This document shows positions 5,994-32,802 of a stretch of 35,403 nucleotides of DNA, one piece after another (position 1 is the stretch's first letter; every line of letters begins with the position of its first letter). A model generated the notes under the pieces. That model did no database searches. It was not told the DNA's origin and saw only the letters and a list, made by a program, of their open reading frames with translations. The DNA lies in IMG/VR virus record IMGVR_UViG_2648501437_000004; one strand, 5' to 3'. The translations under genes were made by a program, and so were the position numbers. This DNA comes from a virus. Lineage: Duplodnaviria; Heunggongvirae; Uroviricota; Caudoviricetes.

Positions 5994-6896
5994 TTAACCC
6001 TCCAGTGCTTTTTCAGCCAGGGTGATTACTTCAGCGAGATTTTCATCCGTTACTTCACCAAGTTTCCTGGCTCCCTGTTTTTCCAGAATTGCAATAGCTT
6101 CTGCCCGGTAGCCCCCTTTTGCTAACTGGAGGATCAACCCTTCAGCTTGTTTGCGTAGTGCCGCGAAATCAATTGTATGGTCATCTTTGGCGTCATTATT
6201 CTGGCTGGAATTTGCTGCGTCTCTGCGTGCAAATTCTTCCTGCAGCTGAAGGTACTCAACACGGTTGATCTCGATATGGCCTTTTTTAAGCATCTCGTTC
6301 AACTTGCGTAAGGTGTGGAGTTCACTGGCTGCTGTGCCGGATACATTTTTGACGTAAAACGGCCCCGTGCGTTCTCCATCTTTGTTACTGGCCTTTTTCG
6401 GCTTAACTTCATCACGCCCATCTGCAGGTGCATCAAGTAGCTGCTCGGCAAAAGCACGTCGCTCGCCGATGGTTGGCAGGTCGTCCCAGAACTTAAGGAT
6501 GTTACGGGACAGGTCCAGGAGAGCAGGTTTAAGCAGCGCCCTGGCTCGTTTGACGCCCTGCAATGCGCTGTCGAGAGCATCAATCTGAACTACTCGTTTA
6601 TCGCCTTCAGCATCACGGTAGGCAACAGCACGTTGCAGCATATCTTCTGTGATAGGGGTGGCTACCGGGTAGAAACCAGCCAGTGCGATAACGTCGCTGA
6701 ACTCCAGATCATCCAGTGTCATTGCCGCTGACATATTTTCAGTTTCAGTTGCTGTATCCCGACATTCCTGCACTCGTGAAATCGTGTCAGGATGCATAAC
6801 AATACCTGATGCCATTGTGCGGATAAGACGTTCAAGCAGCGCATTATGTTGTGCCAGAAGTTGATTATTAAGTTCTAGACTGGTTTCTAAACTCAT
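5994..6896 (-). CDS. Hypothetical phage early protein (300 aa)
   Basis: ATG at 6894-6896; stop-start overlap with upstream small ORF; tight coupling (2-nt gap) to the nuclease gene. No family recognised. Confidence 0.65.
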
Positions 6897-12087: not shown

Positions 12088-12510
12088 ATGCGTAATATTC
12101 AACAGGTTTTAGAGCGCTGGGGTGGCTGGGCAGCGAGTGAAGGTGGTAGCGTCTACTTTCCTCCTGTTGCAGCCGGGTTTAAGAATCTGCTACCCGCGAC
12201 GCAGTCTGGAAGGCTGAAATGCAGTGACAATGACGGTCTTATCATCAACTCCGCTATGAGCTGCCTGAAGAAAAAAGATCCGTATCTGTGCACGCTCCTT
12301 GAGTGGCATTACGTCCAGGCCATGCCCGTGCGGGCGATGGGTGAGAAGCTCGGCGTATCTCACACCCACGTTCTGAAGAGGCTTCAGGCGGCAGAGGGAT
12401 TTATTGACGGTTGCTTAGCCATGCTGGATGTGGTGCTCGAAATGGATCAGTCGGTTCAGTCAAAGCCTCAGGCTATCAGGACTTTGCGTAGGAGCTGCTC
12501 GGCGGCATAA
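12088..12510 (+). CDS. Q: Late-gene antiterminator Q (phage 82 / PF06530-type)
   Basis: N-terminus MRNIQQVLERWGGWAASEGG and overall pattern match recalled phage-82-type Q proteins; positioned just upstream of the lysis cassette. Confidence 0.8.
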   Translation: MRNIQQVLERWGGWAASEGGSVYFPPVAAGFKNLLPATQSGRLKCSDNDGLIINSAMSCLKKKDPYLCTLLEWHYVQAMPVRAMGEKLGVSHTHVLKRLQAAEGFIDGCLAMLDVVLEMDQSVQSKPQAIRTLRRSCSAA

Positions 12511-25862: not shown

Positions 25863-26050
25863 CGTTTAACAGCCTGCCGGACGGGCTGTCCTACCTTCTC
25901 AATCCGGTTGACGCCGGGTTAATTCCTTATACAGCACTTAAAGATGGCTCTGTCGATTTGTACGATATTGCTCTTTTGAATGACCATCTGGCGGTAAAAG
26001 CGGATAACCAGCGGCGCATTGAGAAATGGAGAGAGGATAATGAACGCTGA
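25410..26050 (+). CDS. Tail assembly chaperone, predicted -1 frameshift-extended form
   Basis: From the slip site at 25811-25817 the -1 frame stays open to TGA 26048-26050, adding about 78 aa and overlapping the tape-measure start. Confidence 0.45.
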
Positions 26051-28025
26051 AACTATTAAAGATTTCCTCGTCTCGCTTGGCTTCAGTGTGGATGATGCAG
26101 GAGCGAAAAAGTTCGGTTCTGTCCTCGCCGGTACAACTGCAAATGTCATCAAAATGGGGCTGGCTGTTGAAGGAGCTGCGCTGTCCGTGGTGGCCTTTAC
26201 GGCTAAGATCGCCTCCGGTCTGGATAATCTTTACTGGGCGTCACAGCGCACCGGCGCGACAGTCCAGGGAATTCAGTCTATTGGCTATGCGGTTTCGCAG
26301 GTTGGCGGCAGCGTGGACGCTGCGCGATCTTCTCTGGAAAGCCTCTCCCGGTTTATTCGTAACAATCCCGGGGCGGAAGGCTTCCTGAATCGCCTGGGCG
26401 TACAGACCCGTGATGCCAGCGGCAACATGCGTGACATGGCCGCTATTTTTACAGGTGTAGGCCAGAAGCTCAGCGGTATGCCGTATTACCGGGCTAACCA
26501 GTATGCGCAGATGCTGGGCATTGACGAAAATACCCTGATGGCTATGCGTCGCGGAGTGGGGCAGTTCAGCGCTCAGTATTCAGAAATGGTGAAAGCGATC
26601 GGATTTAATGCCGATCAGGCTGCCTTATCGTCAAACCGGTTTATGACCTCGCTGAAATCGCTCGGTGAAATGGCCGGGATGGCGCGGGACAAAATCGGAT
26701 CGAATCTTGCGGGCGGACTGGCGGGGCAGATTGATAACCTGCGCAAAAAGATAATTGAAAATTTTCCCAAAATTGAAGTCACCATCACAAAGGTCATAAA
26801 GGGGATCCTCTGGCTGGGTGAGATAGTCGGGCGGGTAGCATTTCGGATAGTCGATGGTGTCGGAGATATCATCGAGTGGTGGGGGAAACTGGATGCCGAA
26901 ACGAAAACCCTGATAGAGGTTATCGGCGGTCTGGTTGTCGCCATGCGGATACTTAACTCTACTTTCTGGATGTCACCTATAGGGCTGATTACCGGTCTGA
27001 TCGTGGCTCTCGGTCTCTTGTGGGAAGACTACAAAACATGGAAAGAAGGCGGTAACAGTCTTATCGACTGGGAAAAATGGCAACCGGCAATAGATAAAGC
27101 GAAGGATGCGATCACCTGGCTTCGTGATCACCTTCTGGAACTAAAAGATGGTGTTGGCGGCTGGCAAAATGCACTGGAAATCCTCGGTACATTCATCGCG
27201 GGTGTCTGGGTATCCAGGGTTCTGGGGGCTTTCGGGAAAATATCTGGTTTGCCGGTACCTCCATGGTTAAAAGGCTGGATGGCTTATGCTGCTTATTTGT
27301 ACTCCGATCGCGAAAATATTGGTGCCAGTGCGAAGTCATCCTGGGATTACACGAAACAAAATATTGGAGATTCATTGCGCTGGCTTGGCATTGATACCGA
27401 TTTTGGTCGTAATCCTCATACCGTAAAAGGCGCAAATATTCAGTCAGATATTCCAGGTGCTGAGCCGGAACAACATGCACAGGCTACGAAGCGAGGAGAA
27501 CGGAATAACAATCCGGGAAACCTTAATTTTGCTGGTCAGGCGGGGGCTTCTCTTGAACGACCGGGCGGGCGATTTGCCAGATTTGAAACCGCTTTTGATG
27601 GATTACGGGCTCTTGCTCGTCAGTTAATGCTGTACGCCGGACGGGGAATAAACAGTGTGGAGAAAATTATCTCTACCTGGGCACCTGCGTCTGATAATAA
27701 CAACACAACCGCGTATATCAGGGCTGTATCGCAACGACTGGGAGTGGATCCCCGGGCTGCCCTGAATATGAGCGATCCGCAAACCATGTCAGCATTGATG
27801 AGCAGCATTATCCAGCATGAGAATGGAAGAAATATCTATTCTCGAGAGCTGATTAATAAGGCTGCCGTGGCGGGAATTAGTGGCAAAGTGACAGAGGTTA
27901 ACCAGCAAAATACCTACCATATTTACGGTGGCGGAGATCCGCACGCTGTCGGTAATGAGGTTGCACGTCGGCAACAGTCTGCAAATGCTCAGGTCATGCG
28001 AAGTAATCAGGTGAGGGTGGGTTAG
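26040..28025 (+). CDS. Tail tape measure protein
   Basis: ATG 26040 with GAGAGG Shine-Dalgarno (track start 26019 is TTG). Large protein with helical N-terminal region and central hydrophobic segments, after the chaperone. Confidence 0.7.
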   Translation: MNAETIKDFLVSLGFSVDDAGAKKFGSVLAGTTANVIKMGLAVEGAALSVVAFTAKIASGLDNLYWASQRTGATVQGIQSIGYAVSQVGGSVDAARSSLESLSRFIRNNPGAEGFLNRLGVQTRDASGNMRDMAAIFTGVGQKLSGMPYYRANQYAQMLGIDENTLMAMRRGVGQFSAQYSEMVKAIGFNADQAALSSNRFMTSLKSLGEMAGMARDKIGSNLAGGLAGQIDNLRKKIIENFPKIEVTITKVIKGILWLGEIVGRVAFRIVDGVGDIIEWWGKLDAETKTLIEVIGGLVVAMRILNSTFWMSPIGLITGLIVALGLLWEDYKTWKEGGNSLIDWEKWQPAIDKAKDAITWLRDHLLELKDGVGGWQNALEILGTFIAGVWVSRVLGAFGKISGLPVPPWLKGWMAYAAYLYSDRENIGASAKSSWDYTKQNIGDSLRWLGIDTDFGRNPHTVKGANIQSDIPGAEPEQHAQATKRGERNNNPGNLNFAGQAGASLERPGGRFARFETAFDGLRALARQLMLYAGRGINSVEKIISTWAPASDNNNTTAYIRAVSQRLGVDPRAALNMSDPQTMSALMSSIIQHENGRNIYSRELINKAAVAGISGKVTEVNQQNTYHIYGGGDPHAVGNEVARRQQSANAQVMRSNQVRVG

Positions 28026-28612
28026 TGGATATTCTCTCTACACTTTTTCATCAGCAGAGCAGAAAAATAGGAATGATTGTTCCCAGTGTTGTTATTTCAG
28101 AGAAGCATACAGATATGCTTGAAATAACAGAGCATCCGGTAGAGGTCGGGGCCGCTGTCGCTGATCATGCCTATAAAAAACCGTCAGAAGTGGTGATGGA
28201 GGTTGGTTTCGCCGGTGGCGGCGCATTGCTGGATTTTGCCAGTAACCTGACGGCTACCAGCCTGCTCGGCCTGAGTCCTCAGCAGACGTATCAGGAGCTA
28301 CTGGATCTGCAGGAAAGCCGTATCCCCTTCGATGTGGTAACCGGTAAACGGCTGTACAGCAACATGTTGATCCGGGCGCTGGAAGTGACGACGGACAAGA
28401 CAACCGAAAACGTCCTGTCCGCCGTCCTCACCCTGAGGGAGGTCATTATCTCCCGGACACAGCAGATTACCGTCGCGGATAAAACCAACATGAAGGAAGG
28501 GGCCAGCACGTCGGCGGTACAGAACAGCGGCAACAAAACCACAAAACCTCCAGATACTTCACTGCTGAAAAGCATCACGGGTAACGTGGCGTCATTACTG
28601 GGGGGCGGCTAA
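28025..28612 (+). CDS. Hypothetical tail/baseplate-associated protein
   Basis: GTG 28025 overlapping the tape-measure stop (alternative ATG at 28073); 195 aa. Confidence 0.45.
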   Translation: MDILSTLFHQQSRKIGMIVPSVVISEKHTDMLEITEHPVEVGAAVADHAYKKPSEVVMEVGFAGGGALLDFASNLTATSLLGLSPQQTYQELLDLQESRIPFDVVTGKRLYSNMLIRALEVTTDKTTENVLSAVLTLREVIISRTQQITVADKTNMKEGASTSAVQNSGNKTTKPPDTSLLKSITGNVASLLGGG

Positions 28613-28914
28613 TGACAATTCAGGAAATTCCGCTGACAGCGGACAACCAGCAGTTCAGCATCGTCCTGGGTGGTGTCACCTGGCGGATTAGCATCATATG
28701 GCGCGATCTGTACTGGATTATGGACCTGCAGAACGACAGAGGGGAGCCGGTAATCTCCGGTATTCCTCTCGTCACTGGTGCTGACCTGCTGGCGCAGTAC
28801 GCCTGTATGGGGCTTGGTTTTAAGCTGGTGGTGGTCTGTGATGACAACACACAGGATTACCCCACAAAAACTGACCTGGGCGGTCGCAGCCATTTACTGG
28901 TATCAACGGAGTAA
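28612..28914 (+). CDS. Hypothetical tail/baseplate-associated protein
   Basis: 100 aa, tightly packed in the tail operon. Confidence 0.45.
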   Translation: MTIQEIPLTADNQQFSIVLGGVTWRISIIWRDLYWIMDLQNDRGEPVISGIPLVTGADLLAQYACMGLGFKLVVVCDDNTQDYPTKTDLGGRSHLLVSTE

Positions 28915-28916
28915 GC

Positions 28917-29978
28917 ATGTCACAGAACTGGATGAGACATTTCGAGCTGCAGCTTGTGGACGGGAACGGTCAGGGAATTGAGCTAAGTGATTTTAAAGTC
29001 ACCTTTACGATCGACTGGTTCAACATCAGCAGCGCGTCCCGGGTAGGGACTATCAAAATTTATAACCTCTCGGCAGATACTGTGAACCGAATCACCGGGC
29101 AGGAGTTTTCGAAAGTGCGTCTGATTGCCGGTTACGACGGTATCGCGCCGGAGGTGTCGGCAAGCGACGTCGGGACCGTGCGGGAAGTTGACGCGGCGGA
29201 CGTGGGTCAGAGTGATGGCCGCAACTACGGACTGATTTTCAGCGGTGAAATTCGCTACTCGGTCACAGGAAAAGACAGTCCGGTTGATTCCTACGTCCTG
29301 ATTCAGGCAGCAGATACTGATCTGGCTTTTGCCACCAGTATAACCTCACAGACGCTGGCTGCCGGTTACACGGTCGCTGATGTAAACCGTGCGCTGATGA
29401 AAGACTTCGAAGCCAAAGGCGCGACCGAAGGCCTGACGCCTGAAATGCCTGCTACTGTATTCCCCCGGGGGCGGGTACTCTTTGGCATGACGCGGCATCT
29501 AATGGATAACGTAGCCGGGCAATGTGGCACAACATGGCAATTCGTGGACGGTCAGCGCCAGATGGTGGCGAATAACGAATATGTTCATGAAGCGATTGTG
29601 CTCAACAGCGCTACCGGGCTTATTGGCATGCCGCAGCAGACTATCGGTAACGGCGTAAACGTCCGCGCGCTTATTAATCCGAACATCCGGGTTAACGGAC
29701 TTATTCAGCTGGATCAGGCTTCCGTGTATCGTACCGCCTTGTCGAACAACGATATTGCGATGGCTGGTGGTCAGATCACCGACCAGAACACGGATGGAAA
29801 TATCACGCTAAGCGGCACCACATCGCAGCCTGCCAGCATCGCAACGGATGGCGTTTATATTGTGCGCGGGATTATGTACACTGGCGACACAAGGGGCCAG
29901 GCGTGGTACATGGATATGATGTGCGAAGCGCGTGGCGCGGCGGATCTGTATACGCGATCGGCTTTGCAAAGGGGATGA
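28917..29978 (+). CDS. Putative baseplate hub / tail protein (Mu gpP / P2 gpD-like by position)
   Basis: 353 aa between the tape-measure-proximal genes and the baseplate spike genes. Confidence 0.5.
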   Translation: MSQNWMRHFELQLVDGNGQGIELSDFKVTFTIDWFNISSASRVGTIKIYNLSADTVNRITGQEFSKVRLIAGYDGIAPEVSASDVGTVREVDAADVGQSDGRNYGLIFSGEIRYSVTGKDSPVDSYVLIQAADTDLAFATSITSQTLAAGYTVADVNRALMKDFEAKGATEGLTPEMPATVFPRGRVLFGMTRHLMDNVAGQCGTTWQFVDGQRQMVANNEYVHEAIVLNSATGLIGMPQQTIGNGVNVRALINPNIRVNGLIQLDQASVYRTALSNNDIAMAGGQITDQNTDGNITLSGTTSQPASIATDGVYIVRGIMYTGDTRGQAWYMDMMCEARGAADLYTRSALQRG

Positions 29979-29981
29979 GCA

Positions 29982-30323
29982 ATGAGGGGTATTATTTTTC
30001 TGTTAGCTGTCTTTTCTGCGTGCAGCGCGTGGGCGGATGGCTTCACGGTTAAATGCGGTGGCTACACTATGGTTGCAAACCAGGGCGAGTTATCGACTAT
30101 CAACGGTGAAAGAGTTACCTCTCAAAAAATCACCGAACTGGGTACCAATGGTTTGAAAGTAGACATGGGGCTTATGCCTGCCAAAGACGGTAACAACTAC
30201 GGCTTTGAATACATTCGTCGCCCTGGTACCGAAACGCGATTCCTGAATGTCCAGCTTCTGCAGAACAGCATGGATGCGCCGAAAATCATCGGATCTTTCC
30301 CTTGTAAAAAAGTGGCTGGGTGA
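29982..30323 (+). CDS. Small secreted protein or lipoprotein (accessory gene in tail operon)
   Basis: Signal peptide MRGIIFLLAVFSACSAWA (signal peptidase I site AWA|DG, or weak lipobox FSAC); GGGGA Shine-Dalgarno; starts 4 nt after the hub stop. Confidence 0.6.
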   Translation: MRGIIFLLAVFSACSAWADGFTVKCGGYTMVANQGELSTINGERVTSQKITELGTNGLKVDMGLMPAKDGNNYGFEYIRRPGTETRFLNVQLLQNSMDAPKIIGSFPCKKVAG

Positions 30324-30349
30324 AGGTAACCTGAAATTCGTAACGCCTG

Positions 30350-30387
30350 AAAAACAACAAAATGTGCTCTAAAAACTGTTGTTTTTT
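30350..30387 (+). terminator. Possible weak terminator after the secreted-protein gene
   Basis: aaaaacaaca ... tgttgttttt inverted repeat followed by a T run; AT-rich stem and 17-nt loop, so weak. Confidence 0.3.
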
Positions 30388-30472
30388 GAGACGAGCGATT
30401 ACACTGCACTGACTTTTTGATGGTGGATTGCCATCGATATGCTACTTCATTAAAGCCAGGAATAACTAAAAC

Positions 30473-31204
30473 ATGAGCTTAGCGCAGCCAAAATCAGGAG
30501 AACTGTTAGATCTTCTGACTCCTTCATTAACTAAGGGTGAAAACCTTCTGAGTGAGTTTGAAATCCATCGAATCATTCGTGAAGCGAAGAAACTACCTGA
30601 ACGTTATCAGGGGCTATCAATTGAAGGCTTAGCTAAGCTTGTTCTTGGTGAAATAGATGAAGGATGTTCACTCTGTGAGCGGGGGTTGAGAATAGCGCCT
30701 AACGATCCAGTTTCTTTTTGTAACTATACGATTGCGCTGCGTAACTTAGGTTTGCATGCTCGCCAGTATGTGATGATTCAGAAAGCATCTGATTCACTTA
30801 ATCCAACGATATTGGCTGAGGTTGCTACAATTTCTGCATACTGGGTTGATATCGATTTGCTTGAAAAGGTGATGCCGATGCTAACTGCAATGGAAGTGCC
30901 GCGCCCTGAAGATATGGGCAAATGGTATGACACGCTCAATTATCTGCATACCCAAAAAGATCATGCTCAGGAGCTAAAAACTATTGGGCGGCTCATGATG
31001 AACGTTGCAGAAAAGTACCGCGCTCGTCTTGCTGGCGCTCATGCTTTTTATGTAATGTCAGAACTTGATACGCTGTTCGTTGAAGTCAAAACAGACGATC
31101 CAGTGCTTCTTTCGCAGATGAATAATGCCTTGGCTGATGAGATTATTATTGCGGGGCTTGCGGATTCAGAATGCGTCGGATGCTTTGAAGCCGGGGAACT
31201 CTAA
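30473..31204 (+). CDS. Hypothetical protein A of inserted two-gene cassette (243 aa, predicted largely helical)
   Basis: ATG 30473 with AGGA upstream; GC about 40-45% by hand count versus about 55% in flanking tail genes; no family recognised. Confidence 0.65.
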   Translation: MSLAQPKSGELLDLLTPSLTKGENLLSEFEIHRIIREAKKLPERYQGLSIEGLAKLVLGEIDEGCSLCERGLRIAPNDPVSFCNYTIALRNLGLHARQYVMIQKASDSLNPTILAEVATISAYWVDIDLLEKVMPMLTAMEVPRPEDMGKWYDTLNYLHTQKDHAQELKTIGRLMMNVAEKYRARLAGAHAFYVMSELDTLFVEVKTDDPVLLSQMNNALADEIIIAGLADSECVGCFEAGEL

Positions 31205-31632
31205 TGTCGGTTGAGCATACCTGTTTTCTTGAATTGGCTAAGCATTCCCTGGCTCTAAACGGTGAGATGTGGACGAGAAATGCTATTAGCCGAGCATACT
31301 ATGGTATGTACCATTCCGCCTTACGGATCACCAACAATCTGGTACCGACCGCTACACAAGATGGTGAAAAACTAAAAGGTGGAGTTCACATGCGAGTCTA
31401 TACGGCCTTTTGTAGTGGTGAGGCAGCTGCACTTAACGATGTTGATGTTAACGCAGTAAAGAAAATCGGCGTTAAACTGAAAATGACGCATGCCCAACGT
31501 GTTAATTCTGATTACAAGCTTGAGCGGAAAATCAACCGGATTACCGCGAGAAGTGTAATTCTGGATGCGGAAGAGGTCGATGCAATCGTTAATCAATTAC
31601 TGAAGATTGGTGATGACTCGTTAACTGCATAA
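31204..31632 (+). CDS. Hypothetical protein B of inserted two-gene cassette (142 aa); tentatively HEPN-like helical protein
   Basis: TAATG start/stop overlap with gene A; GGGGA Shine-Dalgarno. N-terminal helix with RAYYGMYH (R-x6-H) is reminiscent of HEPN nucleases; not verified. Confidence 0.6.
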   Translation: MSVEHTCFLELAKHSLALNGEMWTRNAISRAYYGMYHSALRITNNLVPTATQDGEKLKGGVHMRVYTAFCSGEAAALNDVDVNAVKKIGVKLKMTHAQRVNSDYKLERKINRITARSVILDAEEVDAIVNQLLKIGDDSLTA

Positions 31633-31652
31633 GCTGAAATTTCTCAAAATTC

Positions 31653-31677
31653 AAACCCGCCACTTGGCGGGTTTTTT
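31653..31677 (+). terminator. Strong intrinsic terminator after the two-gene cassette
   Basis: aaacccgcc-actt-ggcgggttt hairpin with a TTTTTT run, 20 nt before the baseplate spike gene. Confidence 0.8.
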
Positions 31678-31696
31678 GCTTTCTGGAGCCTACTAA

Positions 31697-32449
31697 ATGG
31701 CAGTATCTGACCAGACCCGCAGCGGCGACCTTGCCGAAACATTTAAATCTGAACGGGAAACAACAAAGAACCAGATCCGTGTCGCCTTGCCTGGCATTGT
31801 TCAGTCATTCGCTCCTGATGCGGTGACGGCGGTTGTACAGCCTGCTATCCGTTACGTTGAAATTGATAACGACGGCAACCGCATTACCAAAAATTACCCA
31901 TTGCTGGTGGATGTGCCAGTGGTATTCCCGCGTGGCGGAGGCTGTACGCTAACGTTTCCAGTTAAAGCCGGTGATGAATGTTTGGTGATTTTTGCCGATC
32001 GTTGTATTGATTTCTGGTGGCAGAGTGGCGGGATACAGGAGCCGGTCGATGACAGAATGCATGATTTATCGGATGCGTTTTGTATTGTCGGTCCCCAGTC
32101 GCAGGCAAGGAAGATTAGCGGTATTAATACCAGTGCCACACAGTTGCGTAGTGATGACGGCAGCACCTATTTTGAGCTTAATCCTGATACCAGGAAAATT
32201 AAAATTGTCGCTCCGGGGGGCCTTGATGTGGTTGCCCCTCTGGCTGATTTTTCTGAGAAAGTAACCATTCATGGCCTGTTAACCTGGATGGGAGGCATGG
32301 TGGGGTCTGTTGTTTCTGGTGTGGCTTCAAAAATCACTGGTGCTGTTGAGTTTTTGGGTAGCGTGAAGGCTAACGGCAAGCCAATCGATGATACGCACAC
32401 TCATGGTGGTGTTCAGCGCGGTGGAAGCAATACCGACGGAGTAAACTGA
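31697..32449 (+). CDS. Baseplate assembly protein V-like (spike) with His-rich apex motif
   Basis: 250 aa; GGAG Shine-Dalgarno; C-terminal DDTHTHGG motif resembling metal-binding spike apices; first of the V/W/J/I-like baseplate set. Confidence 0.6.
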   Translation: MAVSDQTRSGDLAETFKSERETTKNQIRVALPGIVQSFAPDAVTAVVQPAIRYVEIDNDGNRITKNYPLLVDVPVVFPRGGGCTLTFPVKAGDECLVIFADRCIDFWWQSGGIQEPVDDRMHDLSDAFCIVGPQSQARKISGINTSATQLRSDDGSTYFELNPDTRKIKIVAPGGLDVVAPLADFSEKVTIHGLLTWMGGMVGSVVSGVASKITGAVEFLGSVKANGKPIDDTHTHGGVQRGGSNTDGVN

Positions 32450-32802
32450 TGCGATACAGACGTGAAGACGCCGATGGCGATTACACCTTTGGCAGCGGTG
32501 ATGACACTTGGCTGATTAACTCACCGGAGGCCGTGGCGCAGGCGGTAAAAACTCGATTCGAATTGTGGTATGGGCAATGGTTTCTCGACACCACCGAGGG
32601 GACTCCGTGGATCCAGTCCGTACTCGGTAAGCAGAAGCCGGAAACCTACAACCTGGCGATCCGTAAGCGCATTCTGGAAACGCAGGGCGTTAAATCAATC
32701 CTCTCTTTCAATACGACGGTGGATACCACGACCCGACGTGTCATGTTTTCCGCTGAAATCGACACTCTCTATGGAATAACGACTGTTACATCGGAGGCGT
32801 AA
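32449..32802 (+). CDS. Putative baseplate protein (W/gp25-like by position)
   Basis: 117 aa, ATGA overlap with the spike gene and the J-like gene. Confidence 0.45.
   Translation: MRYRREDADGDYTFGSGDDTWLINSPEAVAQAVKTRFELWYGQWFLDTTEGTPWIQSVLGKQKPETYNLAIRKRILETQGVKSILSFNTTVDTTTRRVMFSAEIDTLYGITTVTSEA

Follow-up and report, generated by a model that had tools for sequence, protein, structure and literature searches.

An exported, exchangeable accessory gene behind the baseplate hub of SEN34-like prophages and its possible part in phage exclusion

Why does a phage tail operon, between the genes for its baseplate hub and its spike, contain a gene for a small protein with a signal peptide? The question was raised by a stretch of 35,403 nucleotides (IMG/VR record IMGVR_UViG_2648501437_000004), referred to below as the window, which is an Escherichia coli temperate myovirus prophage of the SEN34-like type (Brunovirus). 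Positions 29700-31700, which contain the gene, recur with 100% identity in E. coli chromosomes, O55:H7 DEC5E among them; a match to this region was found in 336 of 5426 complete E. coli genomes, with up to 3 copies per genome. We conclude that the 113-aa product is very probably an exported, non-structural accessory protein. By analogy with known systems, phage exclusion or entry blocking is proposed as its role, a proposal that we regard as plausible but tentative.

The reading frame of 113 codons was confirmed, and the gene was found embedded in a tail-tip module of the myovirus type (Table 1). Its upstream neighbor is annotated as 'baseplate hub' in Yersinia phage YP3 and in SEN34. The hub stop codon (TGA, 29976-29978) is followed by 3 nt and then by the ATG of the 113-aa gene, leaving no room for an intergenic promoter. 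A scan of 28500-32500 for sigma-70-like sites on the + strand returned none at the scan threshold; the best candidate found by eye upstream of the gene was an 8/12 match at ~29855-29885, and a promoter within the hub coding sequence may exist. Downstream lie the genes for a 243-aa and a 142-aa protein, then the gpV-type spike gene, and after it those for a protein of 117 aa (its equivalents at related loci have a Pfam Sheath_initiator match), for baseplate J and for DUF2612. The phage also encodes its own holin, with the lysis cassette elsewhere. In the tape measure protein, the C-terminal region (27369-28025, residues ~450-668) carries an NNPGN-type motif and has no Pfam match, and no lysin domain was recognized in the window tape measure; in a related locus (L087), an SLT lytic transglycosylase domain (PF01464) was recognized in the equivalent protein. 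The C-terminal region of the window protein may perhaps be an unrecognized muralytic domain.

Table 1 Coordinates of the features discussed (positions in the window unless a locus is named).
Feature	Position	Strand	Remarks
Lambda-type Q antiterminator gene	12088-12510	+	Pfam Phage_antitermQ, E = 5e-42
Tape measure gene	26019-28025		Tail-tip module, in the order listed
Dit-like protein gene	28025-28612		Tail-tip module, in the order listed
Pam3-gp18-type plug gene	28612-28914		Tail-tip module, in the order listed
Baseplate hub gene	28917-29978	+	353 aa; Pfam E217_GP41; upstream anchor of the slot
Shine-Dalgarno of the 113-aa gene	29970-29975	+	AGGGGA, within the last hub codons; read from the sequence
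113-aa gene	29982-30323	+	ATG start, 113 codons
Signal peptide	29982-30035	+	aa 1-18, MRGIIFLLAVFSACSAWA; predicted SPase I cleavage after A18
Mature domain and stop codon	30036-30323	+	95 aa, predicted all-beta (alignments, AlphaFold2)
Invariant Cys25	30054-30056
Invariant Cys108	30303-30305
3' remnant of the 113-aa gene	30269-30320	+	52-58 nt, 91-98% identity, directly behind the 'type X' gene in L142, L145, L151, L167
Slot 2, separate variable cargo	30324-31652	+	Here the 243-aa + 142-aa cassette
Intrinsic terminator	31653-31680	+	9-bp GC-rich stem and T-run, -17.9 kcal/mol; directly before the spike Shine-Dalgarno
Membrane-puncturing gpV-type spike gene	31697-32449	+	Pfam N-terminal spike domain, E = 3.6e-43, and Apex motif; downstream anchor
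Chromosomal homologs	L090 6001-6357; L091 5001-5327; L098 3953-4300; L099

The N-terminus, MRGIIFLLAVFSACSAWA followed by DG, has a positive n-region (MRG), a 10-residue hydrophobic core (IIFLLAVFSA) and a cleavage region with an A-x-A site (CSAWA, then D). Across 121 homologs, A16 is kept in 98% and A18 in 100%, and the hydrophobic core is free to vary. Judged by a positive n-region, a hydrophobic core of 7-15 residues and small residues at -3 and -1 of the cleavage site, the protein would be a Sec-exported SPase I substrate. The call is based on the motif, on its conservation and on a home-made heuristic that flagged 53 of 1189 control ORFs (4.5%); all full-length family members in the hub-selected loci described below pass it. 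The signal peptide and the position between the hub and the two-gene cassette, both pointed out in an earlier reading of the DNA (hereafter the sequence-only reading), are thus borne out. That reading had left a choice between a secreted protein and a lipoprotein, of which the first agrees with the conserved A-x-A site and the second does not hold for the family. Under the lipobox criterion applied ([LVI][ASTVI][GAS]C, with Cys conserved as the first mature residue), the FSAC of the window protein is non-canonical in its residue at -3, and its cysteine (Cys14) is present in only 8 of the 121 homologs, most of which have F or S there. Lipidation was therefore rejected as a family trait. A canonical lipobox (LSGC) together with this domain was found only in a fused relative, P0144, a true lipoprotein of 292 aa that has the domain at its C-terminus and is encoded directly after the hub.

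Annotations of two family members begin late. SEN34_20 (L003, NC_028699, 3588-3929) is annotated as 77 aa from an internal ATG, 36 codons late; an in-frame TTG 108 nt upstream gives 113 aa, the signal peptide KALAILIVSFMSFGASA and a family match. The annotation of the ST340-VIM1phi10.1 homolog is truncated in a similar way.

In the mature part, C25 and C108 are invariant in the alignments even in relatives of 25-30% identity, which is consistent with a periplasmic disulfide; a C25-C108 bond is probably formed in that compartment. The protein matches phrog_3443, a family without annotated function, over its full length (E = 8.4e-48; residues 2-112 against positions 2-114 of the 115 in the profile). 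Relatives fall into ~396 clusters at 90% identity, all labeled 'hypothetical' and all from Enterobacterales, and an exhaustive HMMER search of 1.84 billion representatives gave only 41 clusters at 50% identity. In Pfam, NCBIfam and PADLOC no family matched the 113-aa protein at E <= 0.1-1, and a profile search of the PDB sequences gave no match. The homology search thus yielded a PHROG match and neither a characterized family nor an exclusion protein. In the literature searched, we found no mention of the gene, of its PHROG family or of virion proteomics of SEN34, Mulock, GZ7 or 689R2.

An AlphaFold2 model of the mature 95 residues, based on a 42-sequence alignment, predicted seven long antiparallel strands (pLDDT 92.5, pTM 0.81). 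With its wider alignment it superseded a first AlphaFold model, which included the signal peptide and was poor (pLDDT 67). When the PDB was searched by Foldseek with the pLDDT 92.5 model, every match had an E value of 0.26 or more; the closest in shape, all non-significant, were avidin-like small up-and-down barrels (TM 0.5-0.6), CRABP and DUF4251. Among the predicted viral structures in BFVD, searched with the weaker first model, nothing was significant; of the named matches, just one, to a 'lipoprotein' of a Serratia phage (TM 0.50, E = 0.017), deserves mention. Two candidate relationships were rejected. An inhibitor fold of the MliC/PliC/Ivy or Spackle kind had been suspected from an 8-strand prediction and was absent from the Foldseek PDB matches of both models; giant repeat proteins (P0125, P0148, P0145, P0159) that had appeared as homologs proved to be an artefact of ~20 summed ~5-bit matches to Ig-like repeats.

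How firmly the gene belongs to its site was assessed in a survey for which loci were picked by the hub alone and the first gene after the hub was scored. The family stood directly after the hub in 134 of 160 enterobacterial relatives (84%); an unrelated exported protein came first in 20, and 6 were without a gene of at least 70 aa within 150 nt of the hub. Among 80 loci with a window-like hub (96-100% identical), 69 carried this family and 11 another gene, a ~153-aa secreted protein in 5 and a ~241-aa lipoprotein in 6, and none was without an adjacent gene. Thus, in backbones with hubs 96-97% identical, unrelated exported proteins had been swapped in for the 113-aa gene in 11/80 loci. The 80 loci with a Klebsiella-type hub comprised 65 with this family, 9 with another gene (an 80-aa Thr/Gly-rich four-Cys secreted peptide in 8, a 233-aa lipoprotein in 1) and all 6 of the loci without one. 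By the heuristic, an export signal was present in 20/20 alternative first genes, compared with the 4.5% (53/1189) of the controls. Behind the replacing 'type X' gene, four loci retain a 3' remnant of the 113-aa gene, which was therefore displaced there. We take the corresponding segment, 30269-30320, to mark where recombination bounds the variable region on its left. A recombination signal in the form of additional conservation of synonymous sites was sought at the 3' end and not seen.

Marine relatives are arranged differently. Of 17 loci with a marine hub, 14 had the order plug-terminator-hub-spike without an insert, 1 had this family, between plug and hub, none had another gene, and the 2 most distant were arranged otherwise. 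In the marine lineage the gene was found only in L096, L097 and L180, between the plug stop codon and the terminator that the empty sites share. Elsewhere, homologs lie directly after the hub in phages YP3, E. coli phage vB_EcoM-689R2, Klebsiella phage Mulock and SEN34, and relatives of 28% identity occupy the same place in Klebsiella phages ST340-VIM1phi10.1 and P18-100. In the 86 loci retrieved by the protein itself, a sample selected for the gene and hence biased, it always begins 6-22 nt after the hub (86/86). The view that this is a conserved backbone gene rather than an accessory one was rejected, since with hub-only choice the site was without it in 26/160 enterobacterial and 14/17 marine relatives. 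From its replacement, its absence and its occurrence at a different junction we conclude that the gene is dispensable for the virion: an exchangeable accessory gene that has become quasi-fixed, and the ancestral and commonest occupant of the post-hub slot in SEN34-like phages.

The hub-spike junction consists of two nested slots upstream of a backbone terminator, slot 1 for an exported protein and slot 2 for variable cargo or none. From the end of the exported gene to the start of the spike gene, the 86 protein-retrieved loci span 65 nt (no cargo) to 1851 nt. Slot 2 is empty in L056 and L075; the order in L056 is stop codon, 25 nt, terminator (6360-6385), Shine-Dalgarno and spike. DNA homology to YP3, 689R2, SEN34 and Mulock is unbroken from the tape measure gene to 30304-30314 and resumes only at 31653-31697. 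The GC content of the 113-aa gene is ~50-52%, like that of the hub and the spike/tail genes, and differs from the 40-46% of the cassette. Moreover, one and the same cassette is found combined with various alleles of the exported gene, and a given allele with various cargo.

The terminator itself is conserved in 689R2, SEN34, Mulock and the cargo-free loci, and accessory genes always lie upstream of it, immediately adjoining; in marine relatives (L181, L182, L190) it is found just upstream of the hub instead. Because a lambda-type Q is present, late transcripts should ignore the terminator at 31653 and read through it, so that only non-antiterminated transcription would be stopped there. A terminator behind the slot is the arrangement expected if the slot has some non-antiterminated transcription in the lysogen. 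Given the Q antiterminator, terminators seem to mark moron insertion sites in these phages.

Slot 2 holds a varied cargo. The window cassette (30473-31632) encodes a 243-aa protein with a weak TPR match and a 142-aa protein with a weak PADLOC HEPN_IX match (E = 0.009), and looks like a defense or toxin-antitoxin-type module. It belongs to a diversified two-gene family (~243-276 aa and ~123-142 aa) that occupies slot 2 of many relatives at 30-100% identity (variants in L102, L106, L113, L120, L149 and L265, for example). Membrane or exported proteins are frequent in slot 2, and cargo directed to the envelope is enriched across the junction as a whole. Examples are a small membrane protein of 79 aa in L108 and L222; an SEN34_21-like family of 107-175 aa (...YYFTLH.SG.NAFN...ECYGTIGD) in L003 (3951-4367), L204, L248 and L269; and a 113-aa secreted family (...DFF..HP.L...) of 113-119 aa in L218, L232, L276 and L172. 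At the left cargo end, just after the 113-aa gene, an A/U-rich hairpin (30347-30388; 13-bp stem, 17-nt loop, six U, -14.1 kcal/mol, z = -2.4) may act as a weak terminator or be the scar of a recombination event.

These results bear on what the sequence-only reading had made of the locus. It had seen in the gene an exported accessory function rather than a component of the virion, and the survey agrees: 11/80 loci have other exported proteins in its place, 4 keep remnants, most marine relatives are without it, and conservation at this position in all relatives was not found (26/160 enterobacterial and 14/17 marine relatives lack the gene at the site). The same reading had joined gene and cassette into one three-gene island. 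This part has to be given up, since homology is continuous only to the 3' end of the gene, GC differs, and cassette and allele assort independently. As for its moron label, the accessory nature, the insertion and the exchangeability are confirmed, and the sporadic distribution and deviant GC are not. Classic morons have their own promoter, a deviant base composition and a sporadic occurrence. The 113-aa gene does lie between genes that are adjacent in relatives (the marine plug-hub junction), but its base composition is like that of its backbone neighbors, and it is present in 134/160 enterobacterial relatives and sporadic only in the marine lineage. A terminator lies downstream and belongs to the backbone, being kept at empty sites; a sigma-70-like site was not detected on the + strand, and a promoter may lie within the hub gene. 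An exclusion factor that blocks receptors, which the sequence-only reading had named as an example, is a putative role.

Alleles of the gene are under purifying selection (dN/dS ~0.09-0.17) and are exchanged between backbones. In L002, L060 and L062, whose tail modules are near-identical, dS is 0.01-0.12 for Dit, plug, hub, the 117-aa gene and baseplate J and ~1.4 for the mature part of the 113-aa gene (dN 0.13-0.24); old alleles have thus been brought in by recombination. No co-variation was seen between allele and tape measure C-terminus, spike C-terminus or cargo type. The mature sequence is ~70-80% identical across Escherichia, Salmonella, Klebsiella and Yersinia phages with differing fibers, and its conservation across host genera equals that of the hub. 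Two further recombination hot spots of the tail tip were observed in backbones 96-100% identical: the C-terminal 100 residues of the spike (32147-32449) come in discrete types of ~100%, ~86% and ~35% identity, and the C-terminal domain of the tape measure (27369-28025) switches type too.

Homologs also occur on chromosomes outside prophages, at 25-30% identity and with the signal peptide and both cysteines kept. Two metagenomic Enterobacterales contigs have one between yciY and yciI-tonB, in Kalamiella one adjoins an aroD-like gene and dsbB, and a further homolog was found in a Pantoea contig. In one decayed prophage (L277, GCA_022602195.1) tape measure, Dit, plug and hub are lost and the spike is truncated; a homolog of 45% identity (P0126, 5001-5342) is intact there, beside RelE/MqsA-type toxin-antitoxin genes.

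The family is probably one of those uncharacterized accessory proteins that phages encode within their tail operons and that act on the envelope. The analysis shows that it has export signals, is dispensable, can be displaced by other exported proteins, exchanges its alleles and is under purifying selection, and it is on these results that the proposed role in exclusion builds. The prophage would produce a Sec-exported, probably disulfide-bonded, 95-residue all-beta protein, for which we infer a periplasmic location, and SEN34-like phages would carry one of several such interchangeable exported proteins in the post-hub slot. Acting in the cell envelope, the protein would block incoming phage after adsorption, through periplasmic interference with tail-tip penetration or DNA transfer or, alternatively, by inactivating an envelope component required for entry. 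Where a protein meets hosts or other phages, allele exchange of this kind, unlinked to cargo, spike or tape measure C-terminus, would be expected; the gene also has a moron-like architecture, lying shortly before a terminator in a phage with a Q antiterminator. No similarity to known exclusion proteins (Sim, Sp, Imm, Llp, Cor, SieA/B, Ltp, gp15) was found in Pfam, NCBIfam, PADLOC, the PDB sequences or the Foldseek searches of the PDB and BFVD, so that the likeness is one of kind and not of family membership. The ~70-80% identity of the mature part across phages with different fibers makes it less likely that a variable receptor at the cell surface is what the protein blocks. Against exclusion, the lack of a promoter-like site upstream and the 3-nt gap to the hub may mean that expression is confined to the late lytic phase, which would fit poorly with protection of a lysogen.

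A wider version of the exclusion proposal would make the post-hub site a dedicated 'exported-protein slot', in which at least 5 unrelated periplasmic or lipoprotein families serve as interchangeable, tail-type-specific entry-immunity modules against the hub, spike or tape measure of incoming phages of the same tail family, with the 113-aa family as the default and specificity set by allele swapping. In this full form we consider the idea unlikely.

The existence of chromosomal homologs outside prophages makes a role in host physiology possible, and the protein might be a factor of lysogenic conversion or host fitness, a periplasmic beta-meander that binds a ligand or an envelope component and is unrelated to exclusion. 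It would then benefit the lysogen, for example by raising its tolerance of stress, serum or antimicrobials, comparable to lambda Bor/Lom. We hold this to be rather unlikely, although the homologs sit at fixed loci (yciY/yciI-tonB; Kalamiella, Pantoea), a copy stays intact in a decayed prophage without a hub, and the best, if weak, structural likeness is to up-and-down beta-barrel ligand binders (avidins at TM 0.5-0.6, CRABP, DUF4251). The structural matches are all non-significant (E >= 0.26), however, ~400 clusters are tied to one tail-module type, no promoter of the gene's own was detected, and displacement by exported proteins at the same site together with allele swapping is more typical of conflict systems.

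Expression is at the center of another alternative, in which the protein is an envelope helper of the late lytic cycle, made together with the tail proteins from the Q-antiterminated transcript and exported to the periplasm of a dying cell. Its task there could be to adjust lysis; alternatively, by disabling a receptor or a component needed for entry, it could keep released progeny from being lost to debris. The tight coupling to the hub (3-nt gap, Shine-Dalgarno region shared with it, no promoter found upstream), a GC content identical to that of the late genes, and a phage that has both a Q antiterminator and a separate holin would suit such a helper. But the lysis cassette lies elsewhere, some relatives do without the gene, surface receptors of the LPS type cannot be masked by a protein dissolved in the periplasm, and no similarity to antiholins, spanins or Llp was found; a late helper is therefore an improbable answer in our view.

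Less probable still is a Spackle-like inhibitor directed at the muralytic or penetration activity that such tails carry in the spike or in the C-terminal domain of the tape measure; it would give immunity specifically against phages with the same tail tip. No co-variation of the allele with tape measure or spike C-terminus types was seen; nor was there any Foldseek likeness to Spackle or to the MliC/PliC/Ivy lysozyme inhibitors, and the window tape measure has no recognized lysin domain. What speaks for such an inhibitor is the near-exclusive association of the family with a single tail type, next to its hub, plug and spike genes, the SLT lytic transglycosylase domain in the tape measure proteins of relatives, and a mature sequence as conserved as the hub across host genera. 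Finally, it is extremely improbable that the gene encodes a virion or tail-assembly component with a hydrophobic N-terminus that is not a cleaved signal peptide, for which its place inside the tail module, translationally near the hub, and its presence in 84% of enterobacterial relatives could be cited, given the canonical conserved export signal and invariant Cys pair, the replacement by unrelated exported proteins in 96-97% identical backbones, the lack of the gene in 14/17 marine relatives with the same plug-hub-spike set, the tiny family (41 clusters among 1.84 billion representatives), and the expectation that a virion protein of an E217/Pam3-type baseplate is cytoplasmic and present in all phages sharing the tail module, whereas 26/160 and 14/17 relatives are without this one.

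Exclusion or entry blocking is the likeliest of these roles in our view, though a tentative one. Related prophages occur in Salmonella, Klebsiella, Yersinia and their relatives, and the commonest gene at their hub-spike junction encodes this exported protein, which has no known domain or structural neighbor. If it does block phage entry, it would represent a new exclusion family affecting the host range of phage therapy in Enterobacteriaceae, and the slot would be a place to mine for more envelope-acting factors. Separating the 113-aa gene from the adjacent cassette slot also matters for any reading of the cassette as a defense island.

Among known systems, P1 Sim comes nearest to the way in which we propose the protein to act. 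Sim, made by a temperate myovirus, is processed by the Sec pathway into a soluble protein of the periplasm and stops infection once the incoming phage has adsorbed. It is roughly twice as large, its gene lies outside the tail module, and no sequence or fold similarity between it and the 113-aa protein was detected. T4 Spackle (Sp, gp61.3) is likewise a small periplasmic protein with a signal peptide and stops superinfection by inhibiting the tail-tip lysozyme of the incoming phage. However, Spackle is alpha-helical, whereas the 113-aa protein is modeled as all-beta and gave no Foldseek match to it; T4 is lytic and has sp outside the tail operon, and the 113-aa gene lies in the tail module of a prophage.

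Two further groups are encoded in or near tail modules. T5 Llp and Cor of phi80, N15 and T1 are small exported proteins whose genes adjoin those for tail or receptor-binding proteins; working from within the envelope, they inactivate the receptor and so protect progeny; Llp has been proposed to stop released progeny from being wasted on debris. Both are lipoproteins of the outer membrane with FhuA as their specific target, whereas the family described here has the lipobox Cys in only 8/121 members, is conserved across phages with different fibers and has no homology to them that we could find; as with Llp and Cor, some of the relatives at the post-hub slot are true lipoproteins. HK97 gp15 and lambda Lom/Bor are envelope-located accessory morons in or near the tail operon, and with these the 113-aa gene shares a Q-antiterminated late operon, a place just upstream of a terminator and dispensability for virion formation. 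Exported exclusion proteins encoded in or near tail modules are an established precedent for the role proposed here.
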